Positions 1-16,987 of a DNA stretch of 29,273 nt are shown in pieces. The stretch comes from a candidate division FCPU426 bacterium (GTDB taxonomy: Bacteria > Oederibacteriota > JAAXVQ01 > JAUVAV01). Made by a program: the position numbers and the translations under genes. The notes below the pieces were generated by a model. It did not search any database, was not told where the DNA came from, and saw nothing but the letters and a program-made list of their open reading frames with translations. Within the stretch, counting starts at the first letter, position 1, and each line of letters opens with the position of its first letter. The stretch lies in contig DAOWGI010000105.1 of NCBI GenBank assembly GCA_030637655.1, forward strand, positions 1 through 29,273, given 5' to 3'.

Positions 1-45
1 AAAAGATAATAGATATCTTGTTATTAAAAGGATGCTCCACGCGTT

Positions 46-139
46 GTCATCCCGGCAATCATTAAGCCGGGATCCAGTGACTTTAAAGCATTTAAAGATC
101 AAAGCCACTGGATTCCTGCTAAAAACATGCAGGAATGAC
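46..139. repeat. Cloverleaf palindromic element (REP/RPE/MITE-like)
   Basis: Nested inverted repeats read directly: GTCAT..ATGAC closing stem; CCCGGC/GCCGGG hairpin; ATCCAGTG/CACTGGAT arm; TCCTGC/GCAGGA hairpin. Confidence 0.75.
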
Positions 140-466
140 GAGCTAAATAGAGAAGTACTTTCAGTTAAGGATGTTGCAATATGAGTTACAATCCGCCGCT
201 TTGATGATTTTATGGAAAAACCATATGATTATAGAGCATTACATGAGAAAATCATTGACTTAACAGTAAAAAGTGTGGAAATTGAGAAAAGAAAAACCAG
301 GATTGTGCCATTTATATAAGACTAATCTATATGCTAATATGAAAGGCGTATTACCAGAGAAATTCGACGATATTGTAAATTAAGGAAGATAAAAGTTTAG
401 AAAAGTATACGAAGGTTGCTGTTCGGCGGAAGGAAAATTAATTATTGCTTATAATCAGAGGGAAAG

Positions 467-964
467 ATGATTTTTTACGAAGAAATATTACGGGTGTTTC
501 ATAAGGAGAAGGTTAAATTTGTTCTTGTCGGGGGTGTGGCGGCCAATCTTCTCGGTTTGCTGAGAAGCACGGCGGACTTGGACATTTTGGTTGAAATGAG
601 TGATGAAAATCTCAGAAAGATAGTCAAAATCCTGAAACGGCGTGGTTATCGGGTTAAGCAGCCCGTTGATCCGATGAAAATTGCCGATAAAGCAACAAGG
701 GAAGATTGGATTAAAAACAAACATATGAAGGCTTTTAATTTTTATAAGGATGACGGCTGGAAGGAAGTGGATATCATTATTGAATCGCCGGTGTCTTTTC
801 ATAAAGCTCAAAAAAGCGCCGTGCATATCAAAGTCGATGATTATATTCTGCCGGTAATCTCCTTGAGGCATCTGATTAAAATGAAAGAAAAAACCGGGCG
901 TATAGTTGATCAGTTGGATGTGAAGGGTTTGAAAAAAATTAATAAGTTAAGAAAAAAACGATGA
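467..964 (+). CDS. Nucleotidyltransferase-fold protein (DUF6036-like, Pol beta superfamily)
   Basis: Motif FVLVGGVAANLLG..RSTADLDIL (GG plus DxD), a third acidic residue in VDII, and C-terminal LIKMK..GR..D..D; GAGGGA RBS-like site upstream. Confidence 0.75.
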   Translation: MIFYEEILRVFHKEKVKFVLVGGVAANLLGLLRSTADLDILVEMSDENLRKIVKILKRRGYRVKQPVDPMKIADKATREDWIKNKHMKAFNFYKDDGWKEVDIIIESPVSFHKAQKSAVHIKVDDYILPVISLRHLIKMKEKTGRIVDQLDVKGLKKINKLRKKR

Positions 965-1122
965 TTTTCAAATGGGAAACAGAAGAACAACGTCTTTTAA
1001 GATTCATGAAAATACCGCCTAAACAAAAGCTTGAATGGTTGCATCAAATGAATAAATTTATAAATAAGTGTTCAACCAAACGAACCAAGATCATCCGGCA
1101 GAAACTAAGGAACAGCCTTTAA
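961..1122 (+). CDS. Small basic helical protein (53 aa), partner of the nucleotidyltransferase
   Basis: Not in the ORF track. ATGA overlap with the upstream stop. Translation MIFKWETEEQRLLRFMKIPPKQKLEWLHQMNKFINKCSTKRTKIIRQKLRNSL. Confidence 0.65.
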   Translation: MIFKWETEEQRLLRFMKIPPKQKLEWLHQMNKFINKCSTKRTKIIRQKLRNSL

Positions 1123-1347
1123 TTCCACGCCGGCGTCCTTTATTAAAACTCAATGTAAAAAACTTGGCGGACAAAAGGAAGAACAGCATTGTCAAAGTAA
1201 AGATACGACCCCGAAATGGTGCCAGCCACTAAAATTCCTTTAGTGTGCCGGCGAGGTGTGTAGAAAAAAGAGGTTTGATATTTATGTGCTGCGGGAAAGA
1301 GCAAGAATGCTGCTAAGCGGGGATGGGACATTGATGAGTTAAGCTTA

Positions 1348-1473
1348 TGCTGCAAAACCCCTGTGAGGTCATTGCGAGAGATCGGCGGGAGTCCTTTTCC
1401 TTTAATTTTATCTCCGGCCAGGGCTTTATTGTCGCGGCTGCTTCTCGCGAAGACAGCTTAGGGGTTTGCGGCA
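1348..1473. mobile_element. MITE-like element with imperfect terminal inverted repeats
   Basis: TGCTGCAAAACCCC (1348-1361) vs GGGGTTTGCGGCA (1461-1473), plus inner arms GTCATTGCGAGA / TCTCGCGAAGAC. The right end resembles 19965-19997. Confidence 0.5.
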
Positions 1474-1496
1474 GAACAAGTCAAGAACGTCCGTGT

Positions 1497-2438
1497 TTAA
1501 GCTGGAGTAACTCTAAGGCTTTTATATTGTTCGTGAGTTAAGTTTCGATATGCATTCCGTGCGCCGCCATAATTGGCAAAACTATCCACTTTGCAGATAT
1601 CGCTAAGTGATATTGGATGTTCATAAACAATTAGTTTTCCCGGAGCAAAGATATTGCTCCAGGTAAAATCTTTTTCCCGGTTTGTTTTTTTAACTTTCGC
1701 AATTTCAGCTTCCACGGTTATGGCCTTCTTTTCTGTATCATAAAGCAATAATTTTCTGCCGGTTCCAACAAGCTGCTTAAGCTCTTTAGGTGTATTCCAG
1801 TACTTCCATTGTCCATTGTTCATTTCATCAAGATACTTATCCTTATCAACGCCGGTTTTGTCATTAAAGGCAATTTTTTGAATAATTCCAACAATATCTT
1901 GTTTAAATATTTCATTCCCAATTAAATCCAAATATTGCTGAACAATTGCGGCAAAAACAGATTTATTAGATGTTTGAATATATTTCTCTAAATAGTTATA
2001 AACATGTTTCCATTCCAAGTGTTGTATCCTGGTTTTGTCGATTTTGACGAAGTCCTGAATATAATTACTATTCGCATCATCCGGGGTCAAAAGAATCAAC
2101 GACTGTATTTTATGTGTGTCACTCTTGAAAGTTTTAAGATGCTTTTTAATTTGTTCCGCGCGTAATGTTGCCGACTCAATTTTTGTCTCAAATTGAAAAT
2201 AGCACCGATTTCCAGCTAGTGTAGCATCAGCAGTGCTTTTCTGTTCGTTCTGCAAAACCTGAAAAACATTAAAGGTGTCATTAATAGGCTTTGAAAAGAT
2301 TTTTGAAACAAAATCCGAAACAAAATCCGAATTTTCCCTGTTTCCAAGTTTGAGAATTGAAATTAATCCATTGGTAAAATTATTTTCTTTCTGCGCGTAA
2401 CTTGTAAAGATATTGACTTCGTTCTTTTGCTTGCGCAT
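1497..2438 (-). CDS. PD-(D/E)XK nuclease-family protein with possible C-terminal PUA/EVE-like domain
   Basis: N-terminal EN..T helix (QKENNFTNGL), AD...FETK catalytic-type motif, and Q in AEQIKKH. GGAGG RBS at 2447-2451 on the minus strand. Visibly AT-rich. Confidence 0.6.
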   Translation of the reverse strand: MRKQKNEVNIFTSYAQKENNFTNGLISILKLGNRENSDFVSDFVSKIFSKPINDTFNVFQVLQNEQKSTADATLAGNRCYFQFETKIESATLRAEQIKKHLKTFKSDTHKIQSLILLTPDDANSNYIQDFVKIDKTRIQHLEWKHVYNYLEKYIQTSNKSVFAAIVQQYLDLIGNEIFKQDIVGIIQKIAFNDKTGVDKDKYLDEMNNGQWKYWNTPKELKQLVGTGRKLLLYDTEKKAITVEAEIAKVKKTNREKDFTWSNIFAPGKLIVYEHPISLSDICKVDSFANYGGARNAYRNLTHEQYKSLRVTPA

Positions 2439-2541
2439 TTTCGTGCCTCCTTTTGTTGTTCGGATTCAGTTGCTAACTGTTCCGGTTTTTTCAATTGTCG
2501 GCACGGGGTGTTGATTCCTTTAATTGACTCCTGACTTCCTT

Positions 2542-2575
2542 CCGGCTTCGCTAAAACTACGCTGTGGCAAGCCGG
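2542..2575. repeat. Short intergenic palindromic element
   Basis: CCGGCTT-cgctaaaactacgctgtggc-AAGCCGG, a 7-bp stem lying between the 1400-aa gene and the nuclease gene. Confidence 0.4.
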
Positions 2576-2648
2576 TTGCCCGCTAAAGGTGCGCGAAAAT
2601 GACATGACTCCAGTAATAAGAAAAATGGTTTTCCGCGCCAGGAACCAG

Positions 2649-5600
2649 CTACGGACGGGGAAGCAAATGGATATCTCCGTTGGCTTGAACGTATACCTGA
2701 TCACCATCAGACAAGCGTGAACAGCAAGCAGCCACCTGCAGAATTGGAACACCTTTTTCTCTGGCAACTAAGGCGGCATGGGAAAGATACCCGCCGCGTT
2801 CGGTCAGAATGCCGGCCACAGTACCATACAAACTTACCAATTGAGGTTTTAAGAATTTGGTTACCACAATTTTGTTGTGGTAATATTCCGGTGAAAGGGG
2901 AAGCGTATCCTCAATCACAGCTATTTCTCCGGAAAAATCCCGGGGCACGGAAAGCGCTTGACCATAAAAATCCGGGGCTTTTTGCCGCCAGGCTGAGGTC
3001 CGTAACCGGGCAGCAGGAAATAGTTCGCAGGCGTTGAGAAATTCAATATCCGTGCGTTTTAAGGGATCAGGCAAGTCCAAAGCCTGAAAAGTCTGTTGGA
3101 TTTTTTTGTTTTTACTTACCTGAGCCTTAAGGTCCGGCCATGATTCGTGTGCTGCCACACGGGAAAGGTCAGCCAAGGTCAGATAAAAAATATTTTCCGG
3201 CAAAGTAAGTTTTAGAGCTTTACCGAGCGCTAAAAACCAGGGCCGGCGTTGCCGGAGCCACTGAATGGCGAGATCCTTGATCTCTTCCTTGGCCTGTAAT
3301 AATTGCAGAGCAGAACCGGAGGCTGGTTCCGCTGAGGAGGTAACTTGAAAGTGTTGGTACTGTTTGGCTAAATCCAAAGCCTGCTGGGGATTTTCCCGGA
3401 AGCTGGGAAACAAGAGATCATAATCTTGGGTACTACGATAGCCCCAGGCCGAAAGAAAAGTATCCATAGCATTATCCGCTGAGAGCTGTTGCAAAGCTTT
3501 CGCCAAGGCGCCGGCTTGGGTTGGAACTGCCAGGTGTTTGGTTAGTGCCGACGGAAGCAGTGAACACAGCAAAGAAGCATGGAAGGCTGGGGGATAAATT
3601 TGCGTGATAAAAATTCGGATCTGTGCCTGGCAAGCCGCGGCCAGGGATTTGGTGTTTGTTGGTTGTGTATCCGGCAAAGCGTATTCAGTTATTTTGTTCT
3701 GCAGCGCGCGCAACCGGGCCAGCAAGGGCGCGGGATCTCTTTTTAAGCGCGCAGCAACCTGCTTGGCAGACTGCCAATAACGGAAACGCGAGAGCAAATG
3801 ACGAAATCCCAGACGCTCAATATACAAACGATTAAAGCCGGGAACCACGTCCAGACCATGGGCGCCTGTGTGAGTGATATGCAATTGATCAAGCGCGATT
3901 CCCAGACTGCCTTGTGTGCTATAGAGTTCTTGTAACAAGGAGAAGGTAAAAGGGCTGGGATTGTTCACTACTTCATATACGGGACTGAGATCCCATAGTG
4001 GTTTATCCGGTGTGTTTAAAAGAGAAGCAAGCTGTGAACCAAGAAAACGTTCCTGTTCCAGGTGGATTTCCGGAGAGAATAAGAATTTAGTAATAGGACG
4101 TGCTTGGACTATATAGAGCTGATGCTCGCGTTGGCAGTACACCCATTCAATATCCTGCGGCGCGGACAAGAAATTTTCCATTAGCATGCCGCTAAAAAAA
4201 ACGGTTTGCAATTCAGGCAGATAGGCGTCGGGCTGTGGTGCCTGCGCGCCGGACCAGCGGGAAAAGAAAATTTCCTTGGGCTGCTTGCGGCCGGAGACCA
4301 ATGATTCAGCCGCGCCGGACACGTATTCAATATGACTTAAGACTCCGCTCTTGGGAGATTGGGTGAAGAGCACTCCGCTTATTTCGGCAGTAATCATTTT
4401 TTGAATAATCACACCGCTGGAAGCGTCCACAGGCACTTGTTGTTTTTGATATGATGTCAGTACCTGATCGACGGCGTGAGGTAGTTCGGTTAAAGTAACA
4501 TTTAGGATTGAGGAAAACCGGCCGGCCTGACTCTCGGTCCGGCTGTCTTCCGTGGCGGCGCAGGAGCGGACCGCATAGGTCTGTGTTGCGGCTTGGGAAA
4601 AATACAATTCCGCGGCGTGGCGGATGTGTGCCGCGTATTCCTCAGAAGTGGCTGGGGGAATTTGCTTGGGAAAGAGCACAAATCCCGGAGGCACAGAAAA
4701 GAGCGGATGATCAAAGGCGAACAATTTGGCCAGCACAGCTGCTTTGCCGGGCAGGACCGAAACGGAATTGGGCGCCAAGGGAACGAGATAGTTTGGCAAA
4801 AACACTTTCGGTTTAAACGCGGAGCTGATTTTCAAATTAAACAGTTCCGCGATCCGGCGCTTTGCCGTGCGGGTAACCGCCCGGGCTGTGAGCAGGCGAA
4901 GAACTAAAAAGGTGAAGGCAAAGAGCGCGTAGGCAACAGGTACCAAGGCATTGAGCAAAAGCAAGAAGCCAATACTAAGCACTATGGCAAAAACTAATTT
5001 CCAGAACGGACCGGGCTGCCGGAGTAGTTTCAGAGGTCTGGGGAGCAACGGCAAAAGCGATACCAGGACCAAGAGCACATTAAACCAGGGCTGCGGTTGA
5101 TCCAGTCCGGACAGAAAAAAACCTTGGTTGCTAAGCAGCGGGTTGTCGGGAAAAACCAGGATTTTAAAGCAGGCCAAAATAGTGATCAGCGACAAAGCTT
5201 TTTCGATCATTTCCCAGAACGGATGATATCCGATTTTTCGCAACAACCAAGGTTTGAGCCGGGCACGATAGGGATGTTTTGGCAGGGATTGTTGTATTGC
5301 CAGGGTAAGTTCACGGCGCACACTTTGGGCCCAGAGTCCCGGAATCAGTAGGGGAGAAAGCGCGGCAAAAACCAGCAGCGCCAAGAGCATGAGCAGGAGG
5401 TCGGAAAAAGGAGTTGTGATTTTAGCCAAGACAACAGCGGCTTGAGTAATCCACACCTGGCTGCGCCGCAGCGGTTGCTTAATTAACAAGGAATTTTTTT
5501 CTTTCCAGGTCCAGAGCGTGGAAAATTCCGCGATTTGCAAAGTAGCTCCCAGATAGCGAAAGGAGTGTTTCCGGGTTTGGCTGTCTTGATACAGGCGATA

Positions 5601-6851
5601 GCAAAAATCCATACCACCCATAAGCCAGTCATGCTTGGTCAGCGCTACCACCAAAAACGGCTTGTCGCGCAACCAGGCAGACAAGCGTTTTGCCTGTTTC
5701 TCAAAATCCGGTGCCGCGTAATCAATAGCATAAATATTATTACGCTGCATGCGCGCGCGGATGTGTTTTTGATACTCCGGTTTTTCAAAATATTGGCGCC
5801 AGTTCACGGGTCCCAGACGGGAAAGGCAATAGGTGTAGAGATACTCAAGCTGGATTTCCCGGCTGCGATGGATACCGTTGTAGGGGGCCACAATCGGAAA
5901 CGTTTGATCGGAAATATATTTACCGATATCACGCGCAAAGAACACGGTGGTCATATTGGGAAAACGCACGTGCGGCTCATCATGAAAATAGACATCCGGC
6001 CGTACCGGCCAATAGGATCTTTTTTGGGGACTGGTATAAATGGCCGGAACCAGACGGTTGTCAGGCAGCTGTTTGAATTTAAAATTGGTAATACCAACCA
6101 CAGGTTTTATATAATACACCCGGCGGAAGGAAGCCAGTAGGGTCAGCAGGGATTTGTGTTTTTCCAAAGGCTGCGCGCGGTAAAACAATTGAATCGGTAT
6201 CCAATACAGATCCAGCTGATTTCTTTTTTTTAAGGGGATTTTTTGCAGATGCGCTTCCAGATTAGCCAAATCCACCCGCTCAAACAGCCGCCGGTTCTGC
6301 GGTGAACCGACACCGGGAATACCGGAGGCATATACGGGAAGACTGCAGGAGATCAGCAACAAAGGCCGATACTCAGGATCAGCCATAATTTTGGTGTGCA
6401 GATCCGTCAGGGTGGCCTGAGGGTAATGCTGTATAAATTTGCAATACCACACGCGGCTTTCGTGAATGTTGATATCACTCCGCATATATGCTTCCAAATT
6501 GTTCAAATAATTTTCTCTGGATTTTCCACTCCAATTGACAAGTAACAGCGAGAGCGTAATGAGCCAAAGAAGAGCAAACAGACTGCTGGTGACAATTAGA
6601 AAGCGGATGGGATTTTTACGTTTGTTAAGCATACGAAGAAAGGCAATGCCGGCCAAGGCAAAGCCTGCGGACGCGAGCCCGATGAAAAGCAGGGAAAATT
6701 CAAAGAAACCAAAAATCATAAAGGGAGCGGGTAAAGCGTGGGCAGAGCAGGGCAGAAAAAGCAGTATTCCGGCCGACAAGAATTCAAGCGTGCGTCTTTT
6801 TATACGCACGATTTCGGCCGGAACACCTCTGTTTACAGCATGAATTCGCAT
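2649..6851 (-). CDS. Large membrane protein: signal peptide/TM segments, soluble domain, YidC/Oxa1-like TM region, PEP/pyruvate-binding ATP-grasp domain, helical domain and PEP-utiliser His-swivel domain
   Basis: ATP-grasp motifs GKAAVL, VPPGFVL, AVRSCAATED..SQAGRFSS, VIIQKMI..SGVLFT, PQDIEW, LYIVQARPIT. Swivel motif GILTERGGYLSHAALVAREKGVP (His about 1358). Several hydrophobic helices at aa ~20-105 and ~478-655. Confidence 0.8.
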   Translation of the reverse strand: MRIHAVNRGVPAEIVRIKRRTLEFLSAGILLFLPCSAHALPAPFMIFGFFEFSLLFIGLASAGFALAGIAFLRMLNKRKNPIRFLIVTSSLFALLWLITLSLLLVNWSGKSRENYLNNLEAYMRSDINIHESRVWYCKFIQHYPQATLTDLHTKIMADPEYRPLLLISCSLPVYASGIPGVGSPQNRRLFERVDLANLEAHLQKIPLKKRNQLDLYWIPIQLFYRAQPLEKHKSLLTLLASFRRVYYIKPVVGITNFKFKQLPDNRLVPAIYTSPQKRSYWPVRPDVYFHDEPHVRFPNMTTVFFARDIGKYISDQTFPIVAPYNGIHRSREIQLEYLYTYCLSRLGPVNWRQYFEKPEYQKHIRARMQRNNIYAIDYAAPDFEKQAKRLSAWLRDKPFLVVALTKHDWLMGGMDFCYRLYQDSQTRKHSFRYLGATLQIAEFSTLWTWKEKNSLLIKQPLRRSQVWITQAAVVLAKITTPFSDLLLMLLALLVFAALSPLLIPGLWAQSVRRELTLAIQQSLPKHPYRARLKPWLLRKIGYHPFWEMIEKALSLITILACFKILVFPDNPLLSNQGFFLSGLDQPQPWFNVLLVLVSLLPLLPRPLKLLRQPGPFWKLVFAIVLSIGFLLLLNALVPVAYALFAFTFLVLRLLTARAVTRTAKRRIAELFNLKISSAFKPKVFLPNYLVPLAPNSVSVLPGKAAVLAKLFAFDHPLFSVPPGFVLFPKQIPPATSEEYAAHIRHAAELYFSQAATQTYAVRSCAATEDSRTESQAGRFSSILNVTLTELPHAVDQVLTSYQKQQVPVDASSGVIIQKMITAEISGVLFTQSPKSGVLSHIEYVSGAAESLVSGRKQPKEIFFSRWSGAQAPQPDAYLPELQTVFFSGMLMENFLSAPQDIEWVYCQREHQLYIVQARPITKFLFSPEIHLEQERFLGSQLASLLNTPDKPLWDLSPVYEVVNNPSPFTFSLLQELYSTQGSLGIALDQLHITHTGAHGLDVVPGFNRLYIERLGFRHLLSRFRYWQSAKQVAARLKRDPAPLLARLRALQNKITEYALPDTQPTNTKSLAAACQAQIRIFITQIYPPAFHASLLCSLLPSALTKHLAVPTQAGALAKALQQLSADNAMDTFLSAWGYRSTQDYDLLFPSFRENPQQALDLAKQYQHFQVTSSAEPASGSALQLLQAKEEIKDLAIQWLRQRRPWFLALGKALKLTLPENIFYLTLADLSRVAAHESWPDLKAQVSKNKKIQQTFQALDLPDPLKRTDIEFLNACELFPAARLRTSAWRQKAPDFYGQALSVPRDFSGEIAVIEDTLPLSPEYYHNKIVVTKFLKPQLVSLYGTVAGILTERGGYLSHAALVAREKGVPILQVAACCSRLSDGDQVYVQANGDIHLLPRP

Positions 6852-7003: not shown

Positions 7004-7660
7004 ATGGCACTACTTAGCGAAGACATTAAAAAACAGATCAAAACACAGCTGGCAGACAATCCCAAGCCGATTACTCTGCATGTATTTACACAAGAATTGG
7101 AATGCCGGGATTGTCGTGAAAACCGGGTCTTAGCCAAAGAAGTAGCGCAGTGCGCGCCGGATAAAGTAAAAGTGGAAGTGCACGATTTTGTGACCGCTAA
7201 AGAGGCGGTGGCTAAGTTCAAAATAGAGCAAATTCCCGCCCTGGCTGTGATAGGTGAAAAGGATTACGGAATTCGTTTCTACGGTATTACGTCTGGTTAT
7301 GAGTTTGCATCTTTATTAAATGCCATAAAAAGTGTGTCAAAAGGCCGTACAGAGTTCTCTAAAATCTCCTTAGCCAAATTGGGCGCTATTACCAATCCTT
7401 TGCACATTAAAGTTTTTGTAACTTTAACCTGCCCTGATTGTCCCGGCGCTGTGCGCCTGGCGCATCAGTTGGCAATCGCCAGTCCGTTGATTCAGGCGGA
7501 TATGATTGAAGTTTCTCAATTTCCACACTTGGCAATTCGTGAGCAGGTAACGGGAGTTCCTAAAACCGTGCTTGCGGGGGTGGGTAGTTTTGCCGGAGCC
7601 CTGCCGGAGACGAAATTCGTAGAAAAAATTGTCAACCTGGTTACTGGTGGAGCTATCTAA
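7004..7660 (+). CDS. Protein disulfide oxidoreductase (glutaredoxin-like, two thioredoxin folds; PDO/AhpF N-terminal type)
   Basis: Two CxxC motifs (CRDC, CPDC); GIRFYGI.SGYEFASL; VTGVPKT cis-Pro loop; GGAGGAG RBS. Confidence 0.9.
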   Translation: MALLSEDIKKQIKTQLADNPKPITLHVFTQELECRDCRENRVLAKEVAQCAPDKVKVEVHDFVTAKEAVAKFKIEQIPALAVIGEKDYGIRFYGITSGYEFASLLNAIKSVSKGRTEFSKISLAKLGAITNPLHIKVFVTLTCPDCPGAVRLAHQLAIASPLIQADMIEVSQFPHLAIREQVTGVPKTVLAGVGSFAGALPETKFVEKIVNLVTGGAI

Positions 7661-8004
7661 ACCAGGATTTCCCGCAGATTAGCGCACAAAAGATGAAGGA
7701 GAGCCGTTCAGAACCGGTATGCAGGCACAGGTTCCAAACCACCTTATGCTGCTGCAGGCAAAAGATGTGGTAGTGAGCGATAAGGAAAAGTCTCAATAAA
7801 ATGAGGCAGGTGAAAATAGGGTAGCTGTTGCTGTGATATTTTTCATATTATAATGCGCGGGCTTGAGGAGTAATTGCTCTGAGTAATTAAGGGGATATAA
7901 GGGGAAGCTGAAATCCTTTTGCCTCAACCGATTTAGTGTCAGAGAGTGAACAGATACATAAAAATATATTTTATGTTCCTCGCGCAATATGATAAAGTAC
8001 AAAT

Positions 8005-8254
8005 ATAAAATACAGAGTTGAACTCAAGTCTCGCGCGATAAAGGACTTAAGGAAACTAGATAAAAAAACAGCGAAAATAATTTTCGCTAAAATTGAATTA
8101 CTGTCAAATGATTTACGAGGTAACGTAAAAAAAATTAACAAATTTCACACCAGAATATCGTCTTCGGGTTGGCGATTGTCGGATTTTATTTGAAACCGAA
8201 TATGATAGAGTTATAATTTACAGAGTCCGGCATAGAAAAGAAGCTTATGAGTAA
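8005..8254 (+). pseudogene. relE: RelE/StbE-family toxin pseudogene
   Basis: Reconstruction (I)KYRVELKSRAIKDLRKLDKK...LRGNVKK / LTNFTPEYRLRVGDCRILFE...IIYRVRHRKEAYE* requires removing one A from the A8 run at 8127-8134. The start position reads ATA, with an in-frame TAA at 7993. Confidence 0.85.
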
Positions 8255-8266
8255 GGAGTTATTGTT

Positions 8267-8464
8267 ATGACCATCCATCCGCAAATTTTAAAGAAAAATG
8301 GTAAAAACGAGTTCGCTATTTTGCCGTACAAAGAATTCATTAGAATTCAAGAGGTGCTGAATGACTACGAAGATTTAAAAGCGTTACGTTCGGCAAAGGT
8401 AAAGGAAAAAAACGTTAAAACCATTTCTTTAAAAGAAGCCAAGAAACGTCTTGATCTTTCTTAG
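8267..8464 (+). CDS. Type II antitoxin (Phd/YefM-like, 65 aa)
   Basis: Lies directly downstream of the relE remnant with an AGGAG RBS. GK.EFAILPY.EF...YEDL..L...ISL.EAKK.L pattern is typical of antitoxins paired with RelE. Confidence 0.75.
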   Translation: MTIHPQILKKNGKNEFAILPYKEFIRIQEVLNDYEDLKALRSAKVKEKNVKTISLKEAKKRLDLS

Positions 8465-8697
8465 TTTCTACACTCATTCGGCGGATTGTGAATGATAGTG
8501 TGATAGGGAACTTGTTTGATTTAAGAACTTTAGCTTTGAAAACCGTAAGTTCATAAGTCAAATACATCCCGTATACCCCGTTCGATTTTTAGTCATTGAC
8601 TCCCTATTACAGCTTTTGTTATATTTTCCTTGGAAAGCAATTACTTATCAGCCAAAAAAATCATAAATAAAAAGATCTAAAATTGAAGAACAAATAA

Positions 8698-9576
8698 ATG
8701 ATGAATACATCCAGCTTTATTTTAATTACTCTACCCACATTGATTTGGAGCTCCACCTGGTTTGTTATAAAATTCCAGGTGGGTGTGGTTGATCCGATGG
8801 TATCGGTTTTTTACCGCTATGCCCTGGCCGGGTTTTTGATGCTCAGCTTTTGCCTGGTGACCAGAAGAAAATTGCGATACAGTATCAAACTTCATGCTTT
8901 GTTTTTGTTGGAAGGATTATGTCTGTTTGGGCTTAATTATTGGCTGGTGTATATAGCGGAACTGCATCTGACCAGCGGGCTGATCGCGGTGATATTTTCT
9001 CTCATTGTGTTTTTTAATATAATTTTTGGTAAGCTATTGTTAAAAACCAGAATACGAATACCGGTGCTATTAGCGGGATTGCTGGGCATGAGCGGTATTG
9101 GGCTTATTTTTAAACGGGAAATAGGAGCCTTTAGTTTCAGTGATCAATCCTTTATGGCTATCATTTTATGCTTTGTTTCTTTGCTGCTGGCTTCGCTAGG
9201 TAATATCATGGCGGTTAAAATTAGCAAACATGATGTTAAGGTGATAGAAGCCAATACTTTTGGGATGCTATATGGCGCGTTGAGTATGTTCCTGCTAACA
9301 TTGATAACTGGAAAAGCATTTGAGTTTGAAATGAGCCTGAGTTATATCTCATCATTATTTTATTTGGTTGTATTCGGCTCTATTGTAGCTTTTGCGTGTT
9401 ATATCAAAACCGTTATCAGGATTGGTCCGGATCGCGCGGCCTATGCCTTAATTATGATTCCCATCATCTCAATGCTTATTTCATCAATATTTGAAAGCTA
9501 TACTTGGGACAATAGTTCATTGCTAGGCATATGTTTGATTGTTTTGGGCAATATCTTGATGCTAAGAACCAAATAG
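8698..9576 (+). CDS. DMT/EamA family transporter
   Basis: About 10 hydrophobic helices; LIWSSTW..IK; YR..LAG; YLVVFGSIVAF..Y...IGP.RA; P..S.L.S..FE. Confidence 0.9.
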   Translation: MMNTSSFILITLPTLIWSSTWFVIKFQVGVVDPMVSVFYRYALAGFLMLSFCLVTRRKLRYSIKLHALFLLEGLCLFGLNYWLVYIAELHLTSGLIAVIFSLIVFFNIIFGKLLLKTRIRIPVLLAGLLGMSGIGLIFKREIGAFSFSDQSFMAIILCFVSLLLASLGNIMAVKISKHDVKVIEANTFGMLYGALSMFLLTLITGKAFEFEMSLSYISSLFYLVVFGSIVAFACYIKTVIRIGPDRAAYALIMIPIISMLISSIFESYTWDNSSLLGICLIVLGNILMLRTK

Positions 9577-9795
9577 AATGGAAAAAGAAATGAGTACCTC
9601 TTAAAATGAACATGTCAAATCAGCGGTTTGATTTTGACGGTGAAAAATATATGTCAAGGCATGTTTTGGTTGTGTAACCCATAGCCGGCCTGGTAAAATA
9701 CCTGTGGAAATAAAGCTGCGAAAACAAGATGGACAATTCCAGTATCAGCGACACCTATATGCCAAAAAAACAACAAATCCAAGGAGGAGTAAAAA

Positions 9796-10371
9796 ATGCC
9801 AAAACTTAAAGGAACCAAAACCGAAAAAAACTTATTGACCTCTTTTGCCGGAGAGTCTCAAGCCAGAAACCGTTACACCTATTTTGCGGCCAAGGCCGGG
9901 AAAGAGGGCTATGTTCAGATTTCCGCAATTTTTGAAAAAACCGCCAACCAGGAAAAGGAACACGCCAAACGCTTCTTCAAGTTCCTGGAAGGCGGCGAGG
10001 TGGAAATTATCGGAGCGTTTCCAGCCGGCGTGATCGGGGATACTGTGGACAATTTAGAGGCTGCCGCAGCCGGTGAGCGTTACGAGAACACTAAAATGTA
10101 CCCTGAGTTTGCCCAAATTGCCCGGGCTGAGGGTTTTGAGGACATAGCCAAGGTATTTGAGGCCGTATCTGTGGCAGAGAAAAATCACGAGAATCAGTAC
10201 AGTGCTTTAGCAGCGAATATCAAAAAAAACCAAGTGTTTAAAAAATCGACAAAAGTAAGCTGGGTTTGCCGCAACTGCGGTTATGTGCATGAAGGCGAGG
10301 AAGCCCCGCAAAGCTGTCCGGCCTGTGCTCATCCGCAGGCACATTTTGAGTTAAAAGTGCAAAATTATTGA
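9796..10371 (+). CDS. rbr: Rubrerythrin
   Basis: FAGESQARNRY, EKEHAK, GE.YE...YP, E..H diiron ligands; C-terminal CRNCG..CPAC rubredoxin-like domain. Confidence 0.97.
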   Translation: MPKLKGTKTEKNLLTSFAGESQARNRYTYFAAKAGKEGYVQISAIFEKTANQEKEHAKRFFKFLEGGEVEIIGAFPAGVIGDTVDNLEAAAAGERYENTKMYPEFAQIARAEGFEDIAKVFEAVSVAEKNHENQYSALAANIKKNQVFKKSTKVSWVCRNCGYVHEGEEAPQSCPACAHPQAHFELKVQNY

Positions 10372-10799: not shown

Positions 10800-13700
10800 A
10801 TGGAGAGACGTCCCGTGGATACCACAACCGGAAAAATGCTTCGGTTATCCAAGAATGCCATTCGGGTATTGGAAAGACGGTATCTCAGTAGAGATGCGCG
10901 GAATAATCTTTCAGAAACTCCGGAAATGATGTTTCGCCGGGTAGCTGAAAATATTGCCGCGCAAGATAAACTGTACTCCCCGGAGAGTGATACCACGTTA
11001 GTGGCGGAAGAATTTTACCGGTTGATGATTAATTTGGAGTTCATACCAAATTCACCAACCCTTATGAACGCGGGTAAGGATATGCAGCAATTGTCCGCCT
11101 GTTTTGTGTTGCCGGTGGAAGATTCCATGGAATCCATTTTTGAGAGTGTTAAAAACGCGGCCTTGATTCACAAGAGTGGCGGGGGTACGGGTTTTAGTTT
11201 TTCCAGAATACGTCCTAAAAATGATATTGTGCGAACCACCAACGGTTGCGCCAGCGGACCGGTCTCATTTATGAAAGTGTTTAACGCAGCGACGGAAGCG
11301 GTCAAACAGGGCGGGACCCGTCGGGGCGCCAACATGGCTGTCTTGCGGGTGGACCATCCGGATATTATGGATTTTATTCATTGCAAACAGGACACCAGGG
11401 AATTAACCAATTTCAATATTAGTGTGGCCTTGACCGATGCGTTCATGCAGGCGGTAGAAGCAGAGACCGAGTATGATTTAATTCATCCCCGCACACAGCA
11501 AAAAACCGGAACCTTGTCAGCCGGGTTGGTTTTTGCGCAAATTGTGAAAAACGCCTGGGAAACCGGGGAGCCGGGAATTGTATTTATTGATCAAATCAAC
11601 AAATATAATCCCACTCCTCAATTAGGCGGGATCGAGAGCACAAATCCGTGTTTTACAGGATCCATGCGGTTGGCAACGGACCAGGGACTGAGCACCTTTG
11701 AAGAATTATATATTGAACAACTAAAAATAAAGGTTGCGACAGACAATCGGGTAGCCGGCTATGATAAAAAGATATTTGAAGGTCAAATGTTGGTTAGAAC
11801 CCGCCCGGTGACTGGTATAACTTTTCGTCCGGCAGTCCCGGTTTTTAAAACCAGAGCCAATTGGCCGGTATTCCGGTTGGAAACCAAGGATGGTTATGAG
11901 GTGACGACCACGGCGGATCATAAGTTCATAACACCTCGCGGTCGTATGAAATTGAAGGAGCTTAAACCCGGGGACGAAATTTTAATGCAGTCTGGCAGAG
12001 GAGCATGGGGGAAGGACAACCTCTTGCCGCCATTTTTTCCTGACAACAAATTGAAAGCCAGATTACAACGCGGGGAGTGCAAGCGGCCCGAAACGTGGTC
12101 GCGTGATTTAGGGCAATTATTAGGCTGGATTATTGGCGATGGTTGGGTGAGCCGGGAAATTCCGTCAGGGCGCAATATTCCAAATTATACTGTGGGATTA
12201 ATGTTTGGAAACGAAGAAAAGAAGGAGTTGGCGCCTGCGTTTCGCTCATTAATAAAAAGCTGGTTGGGATTAAACGGTACTTCCGTGGAACGTAACGGCA
12301 CATACACTTTGTACTACAAATCCGTGCTCTATTATTTTTTAAATTCCTTAGGAATTACACTATGCTCCGGCTTGGAAAAAGAAGTGCCAAAATCCCTTTG
12401 GACTGCGCCGAGAGAAGCAGTTTTGGGATTTTTACAAGCGCTTTTTACAGCCGACGGTACAGTCAACGCAAGTCTCAGTAAAGGATGCTGCTCAATACGT
12501 TTGGCCAATAGTTCGAAAAAATTATTGCAGCAAATCCAAATTATGCTTTTAAATGAAGGCCTGGCGGCAAAGTTGAAACTGCGGCGAAAACCGGGCGTCA
12601 AATTCATGCCGGATTCCAAGAGACAACCGAAATTGTATCACTATGCCGCCCAATACGAATTGATCATAGATGGCGCCAATCGGGATAAATTTATCGAAAA
12701 TATAGGCTTCATGCTTCCTGCCAAACAGAAGAAGGCCGAAGAGTGGATTGCCTCTAAAAAGCGTAATTCCAATAAAGAGTATTTTGTTGACCAGGTTAAA
12801 GAGATAGTTCCTGCCGGCAGAGAGGATGTTTATTGTACCACAGAGCCTGAAACCCATTCTGTTGTAAGTAATGGTTTTGTTACGGCACAGTGCGGAGAAC
12901 AGCCGTTGTTGCCGTATGAGGCATGCAATTTGGGTTCCATCAATTTTTCCGTATTGGTGACCGACAAAGACGGAGCAAAAGTAATTGACTATGCCCGCCT
13001 GCGTCGCATTGTTAAAAGTGCGGTTCATTTCCTGGACAATGTGATTGATGCCTCAAAGTTTCCTTTACCCCAGATCGAAGCCGTGGTGAAGAAAAACCGG
13101 AAAATCGGTCTGGGTGTGATGGGTTTTGCCGACTTGTTGCTGAAATTAGGAATTCCCTATAATTCTGAGCGAGCGTTGGCCACGGCCGAAAGCATCATGC
13201 AGTGCATTGCTGAGGAAAGCAGACAGGCTTCCCGGGAATTGGCTGTGGACCGCGGACCATTTCCGGAATTTGCCCGGAGTCGTTGGGCCAAACAAAAACT
13301 ACCGCCGCAGCGCAACGCGACCACAACCACCATCGCGCCAACCGGGACAATCAGTATTATTGCCAATACCAGTTCCGGCATTGAACCCTTGTTCGCGGTC
13401 TCGTATGTTCGTAATGTGATGGACAATGATCAATTGGTGGAAGTAAATCCGATCTTTGAGGAAAAAGCGATTTTGCATGATTTTGCCTCAGAGGAGCTGA
13501 TGCAGGAGATTGCCAAAAAAGGAAGCGTGCAAGGGATGGAGGCAGTGCCGCCGGAAATGCGTAAAATCTTTGTGACTGCGCATGATATGGAACCTTTATG
13601 GCATATCCGGATGCAGGCGGTATTTCAAAAACATACGGATAACGCAGTTTCCAAGACGGTTAATTTTGCTCAGTCGGCTACTGAAGCAGATGTAAAAGAA

Positions 13701-14309
13701 GTGTTTCTGGAAGCTTATCGCGCTCAATGCAAGGGTGTTACCATTTACCGGGATGGTAGTCGTGAGGGTCAGGTGTTGTCCACGTCCGCAGGAGCAGGCG
13801 TCGCAGCAGGGCCGGGACACAAACTGGAACCCCGGGACCGGCCGGAAGTGGTTTCCGGGATTACGGAAAAAATAAAAACCGGGTGCGGTAATTATTATAT
13901 AACTATGAATCATGATGAAAAAGGCTTGTTTGAAGTATTTACACAGATGGGGAAATCAGGAGGATGCGCGGCAGCCCAATCCGAGGCCATTGCCCGTCTG
14001 ATTTCGTTGGCCTTGCGTGCGGATGTGAATCCGGAAGCGATTATTAAAAACCTGCGCGGTTTGCGCTGTTCCAGTCCGGCCTGGAGTGCGGGAGGCATGG
14101 TGCTCTCTTGTCCGGATGCGGTGGGACTGGCCATGGAAAATATTATCAAATGGCAGAGCAATGCTAAAACCCCTGGCCGGAAGAAGATGTCAGCGGGCTT
14201 GAATGCTCTGGATCATCTGATTGGCGCATGTCCGGAGTGCGGTGGAACCGTGGAGCATGAGAGCGGTTGTGTGGTATGCCGCGTGTGCGGCTTTTCCAAG
14301 TGCGCCTAA
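10800..14309 (+). CDS. nrdJ: Class II (adenosylcobalamin-dependent) ribonucleotide reductase, intein-containing
   Basis: PNSPTLMNAG..QLSACF, GGGTGF, QGGTRRGANM, TNP|CGEQ..ACNLGS, TIAPTGT, SGIEP, KGVTIYRDGSR; C-terminal TSCPD-type domain and Cys cluster (CPECG..GCVVCRVCGFSKC). No N-terminal ATP cone is evident. Confidence 0.95.
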   Translation: MERRPVDTTTGKMLRLSKNAIRVLERRYLSRDARNNLSETPEMMFRRVAENIAAQDKLYSPESDTTLVAEEFYRLMINLEFIPNSPTLMNAGKDMQQLSACFVLPVEDSMESIFESVKNAALIHKSGGGTGFSFSRIRPKNDIVRTTNGCASGPVSFMKVFNAATEAVKQGGTRRGANMAVLRVDHPDIMDFIHCKQDTRELTNFNISVALTDAFMQAVEAETEYDLIHPRTQQKTGTLSAGLVFAQIVKNAWETGEPGIVFIDQINKYNPTPQLGGIESTNPCFTGSMRLATDQGLSTFEELYIEQLKIKVATDNRVAGYDKKIFEGQMLVRTRPVTGITFRPAVPVFKTRANWPVFRLETKDGYEVTTTADHKFITPRGRMKLKELKPGDEILMQSGRGAWGKDNLLPPFFPDNKLKARLQRGECKRPETWSRDLGQLLGWIIGDGWVSREIPSGRNIPNYTVGLMFGNEEKKELAPAFRSLIKSWLGLNGTSVERNGTYTLYYKSVLYYFLNSLGITLCSGLEKEVPKSLWTAPREAVLGFLQALFTADGTVNASLSKGCCSIRLANSSKKLLQQIQIMLLNEGLAAKLKLRRKPGVKFMPDSKRQPKLYHYAAQYELIIDGANRDKFIENIGFMLPAKQKKAEEWIASKKRNSNKEYFVDQVKEIVPAGREDVYCTTEPETHSVVSNGFVTAQCGEQPLLPYEACNLGSINFSVLVTDKDGAKVIDYARLRRIVKSAVHFLDNVIDASKFPLPQIEAVVKKNRKIGLGVMGFADLLLKLGIPYNSERALATAESIMQCIAEESRQASRELAVDRGPFPEFARSRWAKQKLPPQRNATTTTIAPTGTISIIANTSSGIEPLFAVSYVRNVMDNDQLVEVNPIFEEKAILHDFASEELMQEIAKKGSVQGMEAVPPEMRKIFVTAHDMEPLWHIRMQAVFQKHTDNAVSKTVNFAQSATEADVKEVFLEAYRAQCKGVTIYRDGSREGQVLSTSAGAGVAAGPGHKLEPRDRPEVVSGITEKIKTGCGNYYITMNHDEKGLFEVFTQMGKSGGCAAAQSEAIARLISLALRADVNPEAIIKNLRGLRCSSPAWSAGGMVLSCPDAVGLAMENIIKWQSNAKTPGRKKMSAGLNALDHLIGACPECGGTVEHESGCVVCRVCGFSKCA
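11649..12890 (+). mobile_element. Intein (414 aa) with LAGLIDADG homing endonuclease inside nrdJ
   Basis: Interrupts NP|CGE. Starts CFTGSMRLAT; block B TTADHKF; LLGWIIGDG and FLQALFTADG motifs; ends VYCTTEPETHSVVSNGFVTAQ followed by extein Cys. Confidence 0.95.
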
Positions 14310-14684: not shown

Positions 14685-16622
14685 ATGAATAAAAATATTT
14701 TATGGATTTTAATGGTTTTATTTTTTCAAGGGTTGTCAGGGGTAGTTCCAACTCCCGGGCTGGCCCGGGAGTGGCCGAATAATTACAATTTGCGGGTAAT
14801 GACTTTAGGCGGCGCATTTTTAGCTTTGGAAGACCAGACCACAGACTTATCGCTCTTTAATATGGAAAACCCCGCTGGTCTGGCTTTTACGCCCAAAGAG
14901 AACTGGATAAATTTTGGAATATATTATGATAATTCTGTTTCTTCAATAACTACGCGCGATTACTATACTGAATATTATTCTTGGCCGCCTGGTTCCTACA
15001 GCTACATAAGCACTATACTTGAACAAAAAGACGATTTCAAAACTCTTGCACTATATCCGGCAGAAGGTGAATTCAGCGGTTTTAATTATTGGGTAAGCGA
15101 TAATTGGGCGATAAATATAAATCTCATGCCTGTGCAGGTCCAATCAAAATATAGGGAAAAGTATTTTGAATATATTTATAATTATTCGCCAGAAAAGCCA
15201 TATAATTCATCTAACAGTTACGATTTTTCCTTCAACGGTTCCTCGTTTGGCGTGTATAGCGATTTGAAGACAGCAATCCGGTTAGGGGATGTTTTTTCCT
15301 TAGGCGGAGAACTTGCGTATATTTTTACTAATAGTACTGATATGGATACATATACTGAATGCGAAGCCAATATGAGTCTGCTTCATTGGCAAATTGGATC
15401 AGGCCTCAAAATTGGCAAGGACATAGCTTTACAGTTAGGCGTAACCGCGGGCAATGATGATGAAGTGGATGATTTCAGAACTGAATATACTTTTCCGGAT
15501 GACATCATCTTTATCGCGGGCAATGATGATGAAGTGGATGATTTTACAAGCGAACACACTTTTTCGGAGTTCAAAACTACTTATACATATACACCTGCTA
15601 CGATTTTACTTGCCGCGCAGAGTGTTTTTAATATCAAAGACTTTTTCCAGATTGGAACACAGGCATATTGGAAATCCCGGGAAATTACAAAACAAGTAAA
15701 AGAGTACGAAGGTAAATACTCACAAATGGATGGATGGGGTGTAATGCCAATGATCAAAGGCATGATCCCTTTAGGTTATGATTGCAATTTGCTGCTCGGG
15801 GCCCACTATATTTTTAGTAAGGCTGAGACTGACTATGAAATGTCAAACAGTAAAAACGAAACCCAAAACAGAGAATTCGGCAGTGGTCTGGGATTTCAGT
15901 TTTTTAAGAAAAAAATACAGCTTGCGTTTCAATATAATAGAAAATCAATTATGACTAATATCGTAACTAATATTTTTCTGGAAGACGTGAATGATGTTTT
16001 TGGAGTCGGAATTGAAGGCTGGGTTACACCTTATGTTGCTTTGCGGTCTGCTTATACCCATGATAAAAGTTATTTCGATAATTCAACCAGGTGGATTAAT
16101 TCATCAACTATTAGTGCTGGAATGGCTATAAAAATAGCTGAGCATTATAATTTAGATATTATGGGACGTTATACACCCAAAACCACGGGCCAGAATATGG
16201 AGATGGGACCCAATTGGGGGATTTATACGAACATTCACATTCCGCTCACAATTAAATCTGAAATCAAGCCTGAAACTAAACTTACTCCCAAATATAAATC
16301 ACCAAACTCCAATAAAGTAACAAAATTAGCTTTGCCCCAGCCAGAGGAATATCGCGTAGGGATTTTTGATTTTATCAAAAACACGCCCAAGTTGAGTCTT
16401 TTTAATACTCTGAAAGAAATCGCCGATTTGCATAACAAATATGCTGATTTGCAAATAATCATAACCGCTTTATACCAGCCTAATTGGAAAAAGTATCAGC
16501 AGGAAAGACTGGATAATATTCTTACTTATTTTGCAGAACAGGGCCTTAAGAACATTGAAATTAAATGGGTTGAGACGAATGATTTGCAGGATACTACGCG
16601 ATTTTTCATTAAGGTGGAATAA
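14685..16622 (+). CDS. Exported probable outer-membrane beta-barrel protein (FadL/PorV-like N-terminal motif)
   Basis: Signal peptide; R..TLGGAF.A..D......NPAGLA motif; Tyr/Phe/Gly-rich alternating strands; a linker then a C-terminal alpha/beta domain weakly like OmpA-C. GGAGG RBS. Confidence 0.6.
   Translation: MNKNILWILMVLFFQGLSGVVPTPGLAREWPNNYNLRVMTLGGAFLALEDQTTDLSLFNMENPAGLAFTPKENWINFGIYYDNSVSSITTRDYYTEYYSWPPGSYSYISTILEQKDDFKTLALYPAEGEFSGFNYWVSDNWAININLMPVQVQSKYREKYFEYIYNYSPEKPYNSSNSYDFSFNGSSFGVYSDLKTAIRLGDVFSLGGELAYIFTNSTDMDTYTECEANMSLLHWQIGSGLKIGKDIALQLGVTAGNDDEVDDFRTEYTFPDDIIFIAGNDDEVDDFTSEHTFSEFKTTYTYTPATILLAAQSVFNIKDFFQIGTQAYWKSREITKQVKEYEGKYSQMDGWGVMPMIKGMIPLGYDCNLLLGAHYIFSKAETDYEMSNSKNETQNREFGSGLGFQFFKKKIQLAFQYNRKSIMTNIVTNIFLEDVNDVFGVGIEGWVTPYVALRSAYTHDKSYFDNSTRWINSSTISAGMAIKIAEHYNLDIMGRYTPKTTGQNMEMGPNWGIYTNIHIPLTIKSEIKPETKLTPKYKSPNSNKVTKLALPQPEEYRVGIFDFIKNTPKLSLFNTLKEIADLHNKYADLQIIITALYQPNWKKYQQERLDNILTYFAEQGLKNIEIKWVETNDLQDTTRFFIKVE
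15446..15544 (+). repeat. Intragenic 30-bp perfect direct repeat (69-nt period)
   Basis: CGCGGGCAATGATGATGAAGTGGATGATTT at 15446-15475 and 15515-15544, encoding AGNDDEVDDF twice. Confidence 0.95.
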
Positions 16623-16984
16623 TGAAAAATGTCATTGCTGTACTATTATTTCTCCTTTTATCCGGCAGCTGCGGAATGGCCGCGGAACTTGATCCCAAAC
16701 GGCAGGAAGCCCTGGGTTGGTATCAGGAAGCTAATTTTCAGGAATATGGAGCTGGGGATTTAGAAAAAGCTATTGGAATTTATGAAATGATCTTTACGCA
16801 TTATTCTCAATATGAGGATATATGCGCCGTAACTCTTATTAGTATTGCGCGGTGTTATGAAAATCTTGACCGTTTGGTTGAAGCAGTTCTTTATTACCGC
16901 TTAGTTATTACTTGGTATCCGAAAAATACTCAGAAAGTCAGGGAAGCACAACTTGCCTTGAAACATTTAAAAAGGGAAAAGTAA
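16622..16984 (+). CDS. Exported TPR-repeat protein (possible lipoprotein)
   Basis: Hydrophobic N-terminus ending LSGSC; TPR-like GDLEKAIGIYE and IARCYENL...EAVLYY...YP; start overlaps the upstream stop (TAATG). Confidence 0.7.
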   Translation: MKNVIAVLLFLLLSGSCGMAAELDPKRQEALGWYQEANFQEYGAGDLEKAIGIYEMIFTHYSQYEDICAVTLISIARCYENLDRLVEAVLYYRLVITWYPKNTQKVREAQLALKHLKREK

Positions 16985-16987
16985 AAC

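Follow-up and report, generated by a model that had tools for sequence, protein, structure and literature searches.

The DNA analysed here, called the window throughout, is the whole of a 29,273-nucleotide stretch from a candidate division FCPU426 bacterium (contig DAOWGI010000105.1), and our subject is one gene within it, at 2649–6851 on the reverse strand (−), which encodes a multidomain inner-membrane dikinase. The gene is an uninterrupted single open reading frame (ORF) of 1400 amino acids (aa), stop codon included, and all parts of the protein placed below by nucleotide position lie on that same strand. It is a real gene for one polypeptide built of four modules: three N-terminal hydrophobic helices, two Cys-less rhodanese-like domains, a core of the YidC/Oxa1 fold, and a three-domain dikinase of the rifampin phosphotransferase (RPH) type. 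Throughout its family the membrane module comes with the dikinase, whether as a fusion or as a neighbouring, often overlapping, gene. Taken jointly, we consider this architecture and this obligate pairing very probably correct.

An earlier note on this DNA, made from the letters alone, had proposed that an exported domain, a YidC-like core and a dikinase are fused here, and the fusion stands as genuine. The gene is not a mis-assembled chimera, because an orthologue exists, because 20 of the 35 aligned relatives carry the dikinase as well, and because contigs bridge the domain junctions. The orthologue, P0002, is 1428 aa long, spans 100% of the N-terminal query and shares 62% identity with it; a genome of the same family, G004, has a copy at 41% identity. 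Contigs from two other samples span the gene at 99% identity or better with no joints or loose ends. The junction of core and kinase is bridged by contigs of run X2 (4455–4959) and of run X3 (4255–4950), and that of outside domain and core by contigs of run X3 (5266–5518); both runs come from the same study as the probable source sample, and gaps in the shallow contigs of runs X4 and X5 are without significance.

Public records present the locus differently. A public protein collection lists a 913-aa product (P0003) that starts at Met488 (window 5388–5390), a residue within the first transmembrane helix of the core, so that this form is without the entire outside domain; it is a truncated gene call. 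Family proteins are named either “hypothetical protein” or “phosphohistidine swiveling domain-containing protein”, and the membrane half is thus currently unrecognised. A newer Pfam family, PF27448, appears in the precomputed annotation of the 913-aa form; it may name part of the 1400-aa protein and so bear on novelty.

Hydropathy marks hydrophobic segments at aa 22–40, 44–73, 84–106, 483–505, 549–570, 589–607, 617–638 and 640–660, with a polar stretch of 361 aa between aa 110 and 470. The first hydrophobic helix (aa 12–39, 6735–6818; helix 12–32 in the predicted model) ends in AHA, within the CSAHA motif of aa 35–39, and is followed by LPAPF. By hydropathy and loop charges, two transmembrane helices follow at aa 43–106 (6534–6725; model helices 43–77 and 81–124), separated by a short cytoplasmic turn rich in Lys and Arg, NKRK. 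Of the signal peptide and two transmembrane helices previously described, the two helices stand; the segment before them (aa 22–39) is either a cleaved signal peptide or the first transmembrane helix. The core loop at aa 512–547 is basic, with eight Lys or Arg residues, and a further stretch rich in these residues precedes the kinase. On the question of topology that had been raised, hydropathy and loop charges, read by the positive-inside rule, put the 361-aa domain on the outer side of the membrane and predict a cytoplasmic kinase. As a separate observation, the stretch after the first helix (aa 37–44, nucleotides ~6720–6743), of the form AxA-LP(T/A)P(D) with a family consensus of AxA-LPTPD, is kept in nearly every family member: A39, P41 and P43 are constant wherever an alignment row has a residue in the column, and L40 differs in just two rows. 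Either signal peptidase may cut here, leaving a conserved start to the mature protein, or the motif may form a fixed turn on the outside.

The polar stretch bears out the “~360-aa soluble domain” of the earlier note, whose fold had been left unspecified and now appears, by VIA-align, as two Cys-less rhodanese-like domains. Domain 1 (aa ~128–265, 6057–6470), located by structural comparison and by the table of alignment columns, carries a conserved Y174-x-S-G177-x-P and no conserved Cys, and it matches 2hhg (Z 8.1; 110 of 132 residues aligned, root-mean-square deviation (rmsd) 3.5), 1qxn (Z 7.8; 121 of 137) and 3foj (Z 7.0). Domain 2 (aa ~295–450, 5502–5969) matches 2j6p (Z 7.4), 3i2v (Z 7.1) and GlpE (1gn0, Z 6.9; 100 of 108). 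Two-domain rhodanese chains span both halves of aa 128–450, with Z 8.9 for 6mxv and 8.6 for 1yt8. The catalytic Cys of rhodaneses stands in the loop after the central strand. In domain 2 the strand order of the model, and not a structural alignment of single residues, places this loop; it reads P323-Y324-NGIH-R329, so that the Arg is retained and another residue stands in for the Cys. No family member has a catalytic Cys there; position 324 is Tyr or Phe in nearly all rows, and P323 and R329 are invariant in alignment A2. In domain 1, Cys168 is common only to the window protein and P0002 among the aligned relatives shown. Near-invariant polar and outside residues comprise R124, D126, D377, D408, G413 and D415. 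Thus the outside domain appears, in fold alone, to be a tandem rhodanese-like unit. One family protein departs from this plan: in P0025 (1130 aa) an FHA domain (aa 35–81, E 7.4e-11) replaces the N-terminal helices and most of the outside domain and is joined directly to the end portion of rhodanese-like domain 2. The protein may be a genuine variant, or its gene call may be chimeric.

Behind the outside domain lies a divergent core of the YidC/Oxa1 fold (aa 478–665, 4857–5420), with five transmembrane helices and, after the first of them, a short basic cytoplasmic hairpin of about 40 aa (aa ~506–548). Its motifs run in the order SPL (aa 499–501), LLRKIGYHPFW (536–546), LSNQGFFLSGLDQPQP (573–588) and VPVAYALF (637–644). 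These motifs, together with CSAHA and, further on, WGYRSTQDYDL and His1358, had all been quoted from the letters beforehand and are present at about the places given. For aa 1–690, neither Pfam nor NCBIfam names a family, and a look-up in the ESM Atlas returned no usable match; YidC_periplas (PF14849) has no match in the window protein. Profiles of the family are more telling. The 7-row alignment A3, of N-terminal parts only, was compared as a profile with 177,635 PDB sequences and found only YidC (7 sequences, E 4e-10 to 5.2e-6), the next match standing at E 0.52; the 35-row alignment A1 found the same chains at E 2.9e-11 to 5.2e-8. In 9 of 35 relatives the Pfam family 60KD_IMP matches near full-length at E ≤ 1e-3 (E 3.3e-7 to 2.2e-4), with printed scores of 21.7–30.9 bits that lie under the gathering score of 35 bits.

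Predicted structure agrees with the profiles. The AlphaFold model of aa 1–690 has a mean predicted local distance difference test (pLDDT) of 85.9 and a predicted template-modelling score (pTM) of 0.68, and Foldseek ranks YidC at positions 1–6 for it, with probability 1.00, marginal E of 1.7e-3 to 1.1e-2, and a TM-score by target of 0.57–0.58 for BhYidC2. In VIA-align, against 48,161 chains, YidC is again on top: 3wo7_A aligns with model residues 450–673 (Z 10.3, rmsd 5.7, 206 of 224 residues), followed by 6y86_A (Z 9.7) and 5mg3_C (Z 7.6), in a range (Z below about 13) where helical bundles may share just a common arrangement. The proposal of a YidC/Oxa1-like core is thus upheld by family profiles, by the sub-threshold matches of relatives and by the top structural matches of both programs, which supports homology of aa ~450–673 to YidC as seen at the level of family profile and structure only. 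The column of the groove Arg aligns with the Arg in the IRLALLPL stretch of BhYidC2. Arg fills it in 21 of the 30 rows with a residue there, and Trp in P0005 and P0006. The absence of this Arg, suspected from the outset, therefore holds for the window protein and not for the family at large; its absence is a peculiarity of the window protein's clade. The genome also keeps a canonical YidC on another contig (60KD_IMP, E 1.1e-58, with YidC_periplas, PF14849), so that the window protein is not the housekeeping insertase and rather an extra, divergent paralogue.

The C-terminal half is a dikinase whose order of domains, RPH-type and without a TIM barrel, had been recognised from the letters and is borne out by Pfam and by a structural match over all three domains. 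The ATP-grasp nucleotide-binding domain (aa ~695–925, 4077–4769; GKA with Lys703, AVRS, PQDIEW) is matched by PPDK_N (PF01326), best over aa 737–864 (E 2.7e-21, 76.7 bits against a cut-off of 27 bits). The central domain (aa ~930–1290, 2982–4064), of the substrate-binding type, is helical in the model, aligns with 5hv1, and contains WGYRSTQDYDLLFPSFRENP, with WGYRSTQDYDL at aa 1136–1146. The swivel domain (aa ~1300–1400, 2652–2954) is matched by PEP-utilizers (PF00391) over aa 1326–1390 (E 2.8e-12, 46.5 bits against 23.1) and carries His1358 in LSHAAL, within GGYLSHAALVARE. No PEP/pyruvate TIM-barrel family is found by Pfam in the window protein. For the AlphaFold model of aa 465–1400 (pLDDT 84.8, pTM 0.79), the top Foldseek match is Listeria RPH (5hv1; E 5.3e-24 over 924 columns covering all three domains, 15–18% identity). 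The ranking runs through six RPH entries to the RPH ATP-binding fragment 5hv6 (E 9.8e-10), PEP synthase, HpeI (9goj, E 1.8e-7) and PPDK.

Residues expected of an active enzyme of this type are kept in the family. The Lys, Arg, Ser, Glu and Asp columns of the ATP-grasp are invariant in alignments A4 and A6, the AVRS, ED and PQDIEW motifs are invariant or nearly so, and the W-G-x-R...Y motif is nearly invariant in both. The column of His1358 is His in at least 90% of the A4 rows and invariant in A6, and this residue is the predicted catalytic His. NCBIfam models match partially and far below threshold: RIF_Ptrans_rph at 93.7 bits against 999, PigC at 87.1 against 1300, RedH at 81.7 against 1350, and the PEP synthase model PEP_synth (TIGR01418) at 92.5 against 739.75. 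By these equivalog cut-offs, the protein does not appear to be an orthologue of any characterised RPH-type member.

The family is rare. An exhaustive phmmer search with aa 1–690 against 1.84 billion representatives returned 35 proteins at E ≤ 1e-3, 24 of them at E ≤ 1e-10; a word-index homologue search had proved insufficient, finding only P0002 and the window's own product. The sequence clusters examined hold 1–5 members each. The protein query finds the module in 2 of 61 relatives, and the A3 profile finds it in 2 of 99 genomes of the phylum, with two more weak matches on frames of ~550 aa, one of which is a canonical YidC gene in another genome (L009), confirmed by Pfam. The partnership, as a fusion or as a two-gene unit, is conserved in several lineages: Desulfuromonadales, Zetaproteobacteria, Chromatiales, Oligoflexia and the window's own phylum. 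The window's G+C content is ~0.50 at 3001–6000 against 0.36–0.43 in the flanks 1–3000 and 8001–10000, and elsewhere the window also reaches 0.5; the contrast and the patchy distribution are compatible with horizontal acquisition and are no proof of it.

Throughout the family, the membrane part and the dikinase keep company. In alignment A1, whose 35 rows include the window protein as its N-terminal part only (row 1) and leave out P0003 as redundant, PPDK_N stands behind the membrane part in 20 rows and PEP-utilizers in 19. The same architecture occurs in at least 17 representatives of 1252–1428 aa. Six family proteins, of 596–644 aa, stop right after the last transmembrane helix. Twelve loci were examined: three fusions (the window, L017 and L019), the copy in G004, one locus cut by a contig end (L016), and seven with split genes. 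In all seven of the split loci, each with downstream DNA (L011–L015, L018, L020), the next gene encodes a dikinase of ~690–730 aa, confirmed by Pfam in the five that were scanned; in the other two it shares 53% and 45% identity with its L014 counterpart. Membrane and dikinase genes overlap by 4 bp in L011, L012, L014 and L020, and the L014 dikinase is 31% identical to the kinase half of the window protein over 711 aa (E 1e-82). In a FastTree phylogeny of the membrane parts, rooted at the midpoint only and built from the 25 of 35 rows with at least 520 N-terminal residues, the split forms make up one clade (support 1.0) among fused lineages.

Some loci bear features of their own. The G004 copy, at 4647–6785 (+) of L005 (G004:C7), meets a stop after 712 aa, just past the GGKA that begins the ATP-grasp, with 188 bp of contig remaining; truncation, a broken gene or mis-assembly at this point may account for it. 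In two closely related split loci (L013, 3271–7290; L015, 756–4775), the pair has upstream of it a gene for an MHYT-PAS hybrid histidine kinase, checked by Pfam in L013 only, and a response-regulator-like gene of a single domain, identified by the start of its sequence only. Across the loci compared, no third conserved neighbour was found among ORFs of at least 100 aa. The lack of such a gene fits a general component of the cell as substrate better than a dedicated gene product.

The split loci also allow the two halves to be treated as separate chains in complex prediction. The L014 dikinase and the L014 core (aa 425–633) gave a score of 0.67 (runs of 0.69, 0.67 and 0.67), against 0.00 for the best of three controls. 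In a benchmark, 0.67 was reached by 58 of 80 solved complexes and by 2 of 110 mismatched pairs, counts that are rough, since custom alignments were used. The three runs agree in at least 98% of contacts, with partner pLDDT of 80 or more. The predicted interface joins ATP-grasp residues 31–38, 173–203 and 247–251 to residues 492–508 (the cytoplasmic hairpin) and 625–633 (the tail) of the L014 membrane protein. The prediction supports, and does not show, that the dikinase binds the YidC-like core.

How might these parts work together? The protein is most likely a membrane-sited, ATP-dependent enzyme of the phosphotransferase type acting on an amphipathic or lipid substrate. The YidC-like core would bind the dikinase at its cytoplasmic hairpin and C-terminal tail. 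There the dikinase would turn ATP into AMP and Pi by way of phospho-His1358 and would phosphorylate a hydroxyl of a membrane-resident amphipathic molecule, be it a lipid, a lipid-linked compound or a lipophilic metabolite, that arrives through the thinned-membrane groove of the YidC fold. YidC is described as both an insertase and a lipid scramblase (PMC11997395), and its groove is known to thin the membrane. The RPH-type enzymes HapC and PigC are described as phosphorylating hydroxyls of bulky lipophilic molecules (PMC13534948), and HpeHI, likewise of the RPH type, is reported to act on phenolic and lipophilic small molecules (PMC12167813).

The groove Arg that most of the family has could then guide the newly made anionic head group to the outer leaflet, where it would be received by the anion-loop-like pocket of the rhodanese-like pair (P-[YF]-x4-R, D377, D408 and D415). 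Where the Arg has become Phe, as in the window clade, transport may take another form or be missing altogether. The earlier note had already suggested a membrane enzyme that couples phosphorylation to a domain of the insertase fold; the pattern of split and fused genes and the predicted docking strengthen it, and we still infer it. As a whole, blending architecture with mechanism, this is our best explanation and a tentative one, which we rate at a little less than an even chance; the phosphorylation of a lipid or amphiphile, as a mechanism, is possible and rather less likely. A bolder version makes an Oxa1-superfamily groove, once that of a protein insertase, the conduit of a translocase powered by ATP and coupled to phosphorylation. 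The docked dikinase would phosphorylate a carrier, lipid or amphipathic, on the side of the inner leaflet, the head group would pass through the groove, and the outside rhodanese-like pair would take over. In this way the cell could supply the extracytoplasmic space, which has no ATP, with phospho-lipids or activated phosphoryl groups; we think this version unlikely.

Several observations weigh against our best explanation, the membrane phosphotransferase. The Pfam family 60KD_IMP (PF02096), which had been expected on aa 470–660, has no match at E ≤ 1 in the whole protein or in aa 1–690, and hhalign finds little similarity between A3 and the single sequence of the canonical YidC of this genome (probability 1.4, E 0.037), although the motifs line up. 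The groove Arg, needed for the transport step, is Phe495 in the window protein and its two closest relatives, P0002 and P0004. For the outside domain, the rhodanese Z scores of 6–9 are in the middling range where common arrangements also occur, and the Pfam family Rhodanese is absent at E ≤ 1 in the window protein (P0001) and at E ≤ 1e-3 in the 35 rows of A1. The docking score is the model's own confidence, and fused homologues are among the alignment rows behind it. The lipid or amphiphile itself is a candidate substrate suggested by domain logic.

Among the alternatives, the core could be a dedicated insertase for one particular client, a small membrane protein or a peptide, which it would insert or translocate, with the dikinase phosphorylating the client or gating insertion and the rhodanese-like pair handling the translocated part. 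In favour are the homology of the core to a protein insertase, the groove Arg of most relatives, and the predicted docking of the dikinase at the hairpin and tail region where canonical YidC binds its cytoplasmic partners. That Arg is lost in the window clade, however; no conserved small ORF or third gene was found in the 12 loci, within a survey of ORFs of at least 100 aa; and, to our knowledge, characterised RPH-type dikinases modify small molecules and not proteins. We therefore regard a dedicated insertase as quite unlikely. It is also conceivable that the protein is a transmembrane sensor-kinase, the outside pair sensing a signal such as an anion or a sulfur compound and switching the cytoplasmic dikinase on a soluble metabolite, with the YidC fold as anchor and transducer. 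An outside domain, a transmembrane bundle and a cytoplasmic enzyme do form a receptor-like layout, and the conserved outside polar residues R124, D126, R329, D377, D408 and D415 look like a binding site. The hybrid histidine kinase and response regulator that adjoin two related loci would suit signalling, but are confined to just those two close relatives; no soluble-substrate pathway genes are linked to the pair, and retention of the YidC groove motifs and Arg across the family goes unexplained. A sensor is unlikely.

RPH being the closest solved structure, with all three domains matched, invites the thought of a membrane-anchored kinase that inactivates a lipophilic antibiotic or xenobiotic partitioning into the membrane, the membrane module merely positioning the enzyme. 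Sporadic distribution (2 of 99 phylum genomes) is usual for accessory and resistance genes. A mere anchor, however, would not need a conserved YidC fold and a conserved outside domain of 330 aa; the RPH equivalog model scores 93.7 bits against its cut-off of 999, no mobile-element or resistance context surrounds the gene, and PADLOC gave no defence-system match for it. Detoxification thus seems improbable. Least credible is an artefact, whether a mis-assembled chimera, a pseudogene or an over-extended ORF whose true gene is the 913-aa Met488 product. The 913-aa form is on record and the G004 relative does stop after 712 aa, but Met488 falls inside the first core transmembrane helix, the N-terminal 487 aa are conserved at 62% in P0002 and 41% in P0004, the full architecture recurs in the representatives of 1252–1428 aa counted above, and independent contigs span both junctions; we consider an artefact extremely improbable.

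The remainder of the window holds features of separate interest. Divergent from the dikinase gene, at 7004–7660 (+), is a gene for a protein disulfide oxidoreductase (TIGR02187, 222 bits). In G004 a similar thioredoxin-fold gene sits in the same place (L005, 3652–4341 (−)), and it is absent from 10 distant loci; a functional link to the disulfide oxidoreductase was considered and set aside, the arrangement being kept only in the same-family G004 and treated as inherited synteny. Just after the oxidoreductase gene, at 7695–7811 (+), Rfam matches group II intron domains D1–D4 (RF01999; 91.7 bits, E 1.2e-17). Since the stretch from 7660 to 8698 has no ORF that reaches 100 aa, this may be an ORF-less or fragmentary intron. 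Further along, at 10800–14309 (+), the large subunit of a ribonucleotide reductase is split by an intein (Intein_splicing, with a LAGLIDADG_3 endonuclease) and ends in a C-terminal TSCPD domain. At 14685–19057 (+) come a 645-aa ORF without a Pfam match, a small TPR protein and a 689-aa histidine kinase, in frames that overlap or abut.

YidC and Oxa1 are textbook protein insertases, now also discussed as lipid scramblases, and here one of their kind is permanently paired with a dikinase that consumes ATP and with a new outside domain. Should the kinase act on a molecule held in the groove, the family would offer a tractable case for what an insertase groove handles besides nascent proteins, and a new substrate class for RPH-type dikinases; the split versions are ready-made separate subunits for biochemistry. 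The judgement that this is an uncharacterised system holds in that a full-text literature search brought up no described equivalent, that is, no title or abstract on a YidC-like/dikinase fusion or pair, or on a YidC obligatorily coupled to an enzyme.

Set beside known systems, the core has its nearest counterparts in YidC/Oxa1/Alb3 (YidC2 of B. halodurans, 3wo6/3wo7; T. maritima, 5y83/6y86; E. coli, 3wvf/6al2), with which it shares the five-helix core and the order of motifs, the basic hairpin that follows the first core helix on the cytoplasmic side, a large outside domain ahead of the core, such as Gram-negative YidC has, and, in most relatives, the groove Arg. It differs in the Phe495 of the window protein and in sequence divergence, the family lying under the Pfam cut-off throughout and the window protein not matching at all. 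Moreover, the outside domain is a predicted rhodanese-like pair in place of the YidC_periplas beta-sandwich of the genome's own YidC, three helices and not one precede it, and an enzyme of 740 aa is attached at the C-terminus. The kinase half resembles RPH-Lm (5hv1, 5fbs, 5fbt) in its ATP-grasp, helical substrate domain and swivelling His domain, in the conserved catalytic His and in having no TIM barrel; RPH is soluble and stands alone, whereas the dikinase here is always tied to a membrane module.

Similar comparisons can be drawn for the other partners. The prodiginine ligases PigC, HapC and RedH, and the two-component kinase HpeHI, belong to the same dikinase superfamily, share its domain plan and are reported to have lipophilic or phenolic substrates (PMC13534948, PMC12167813); HpeHI illustrates that such enzymes can split into separate subunits. 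None is reported with a YidC-fold partner, and no pigment or catabolic genes lie near the window gene or the family loci. In E. coli, the rhodanese-like protein YibN is described as associating physically and functionally with YidC (PMC11997395). Its rhodanese-like domain is cytosolic and carried by a separate protein with a single transmembrane helix, whereas here two are fused and lie outside the membrane, and the YibN–YidC pair involves no kinase; the parallel may be coincidental. Tandem rhodaneses (6mxv, 1yt8) and phosphatases of the Cdc25/Acr2 type (1c25, 2j6p) offer the same succession of two alpha/beta domains and the loop Arg (P-Y-x4-R329). The pair here is distinguished from them by its lack of a catalytic Cys and of any Rhodanese match at the sequence level, and by being membrane-tethered and extracytoplasmic. 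In essence, a YidC paralogue and an RPH-type dikinase are each of a known kind, and it is their combination that has a real chance of doing something categorically new.

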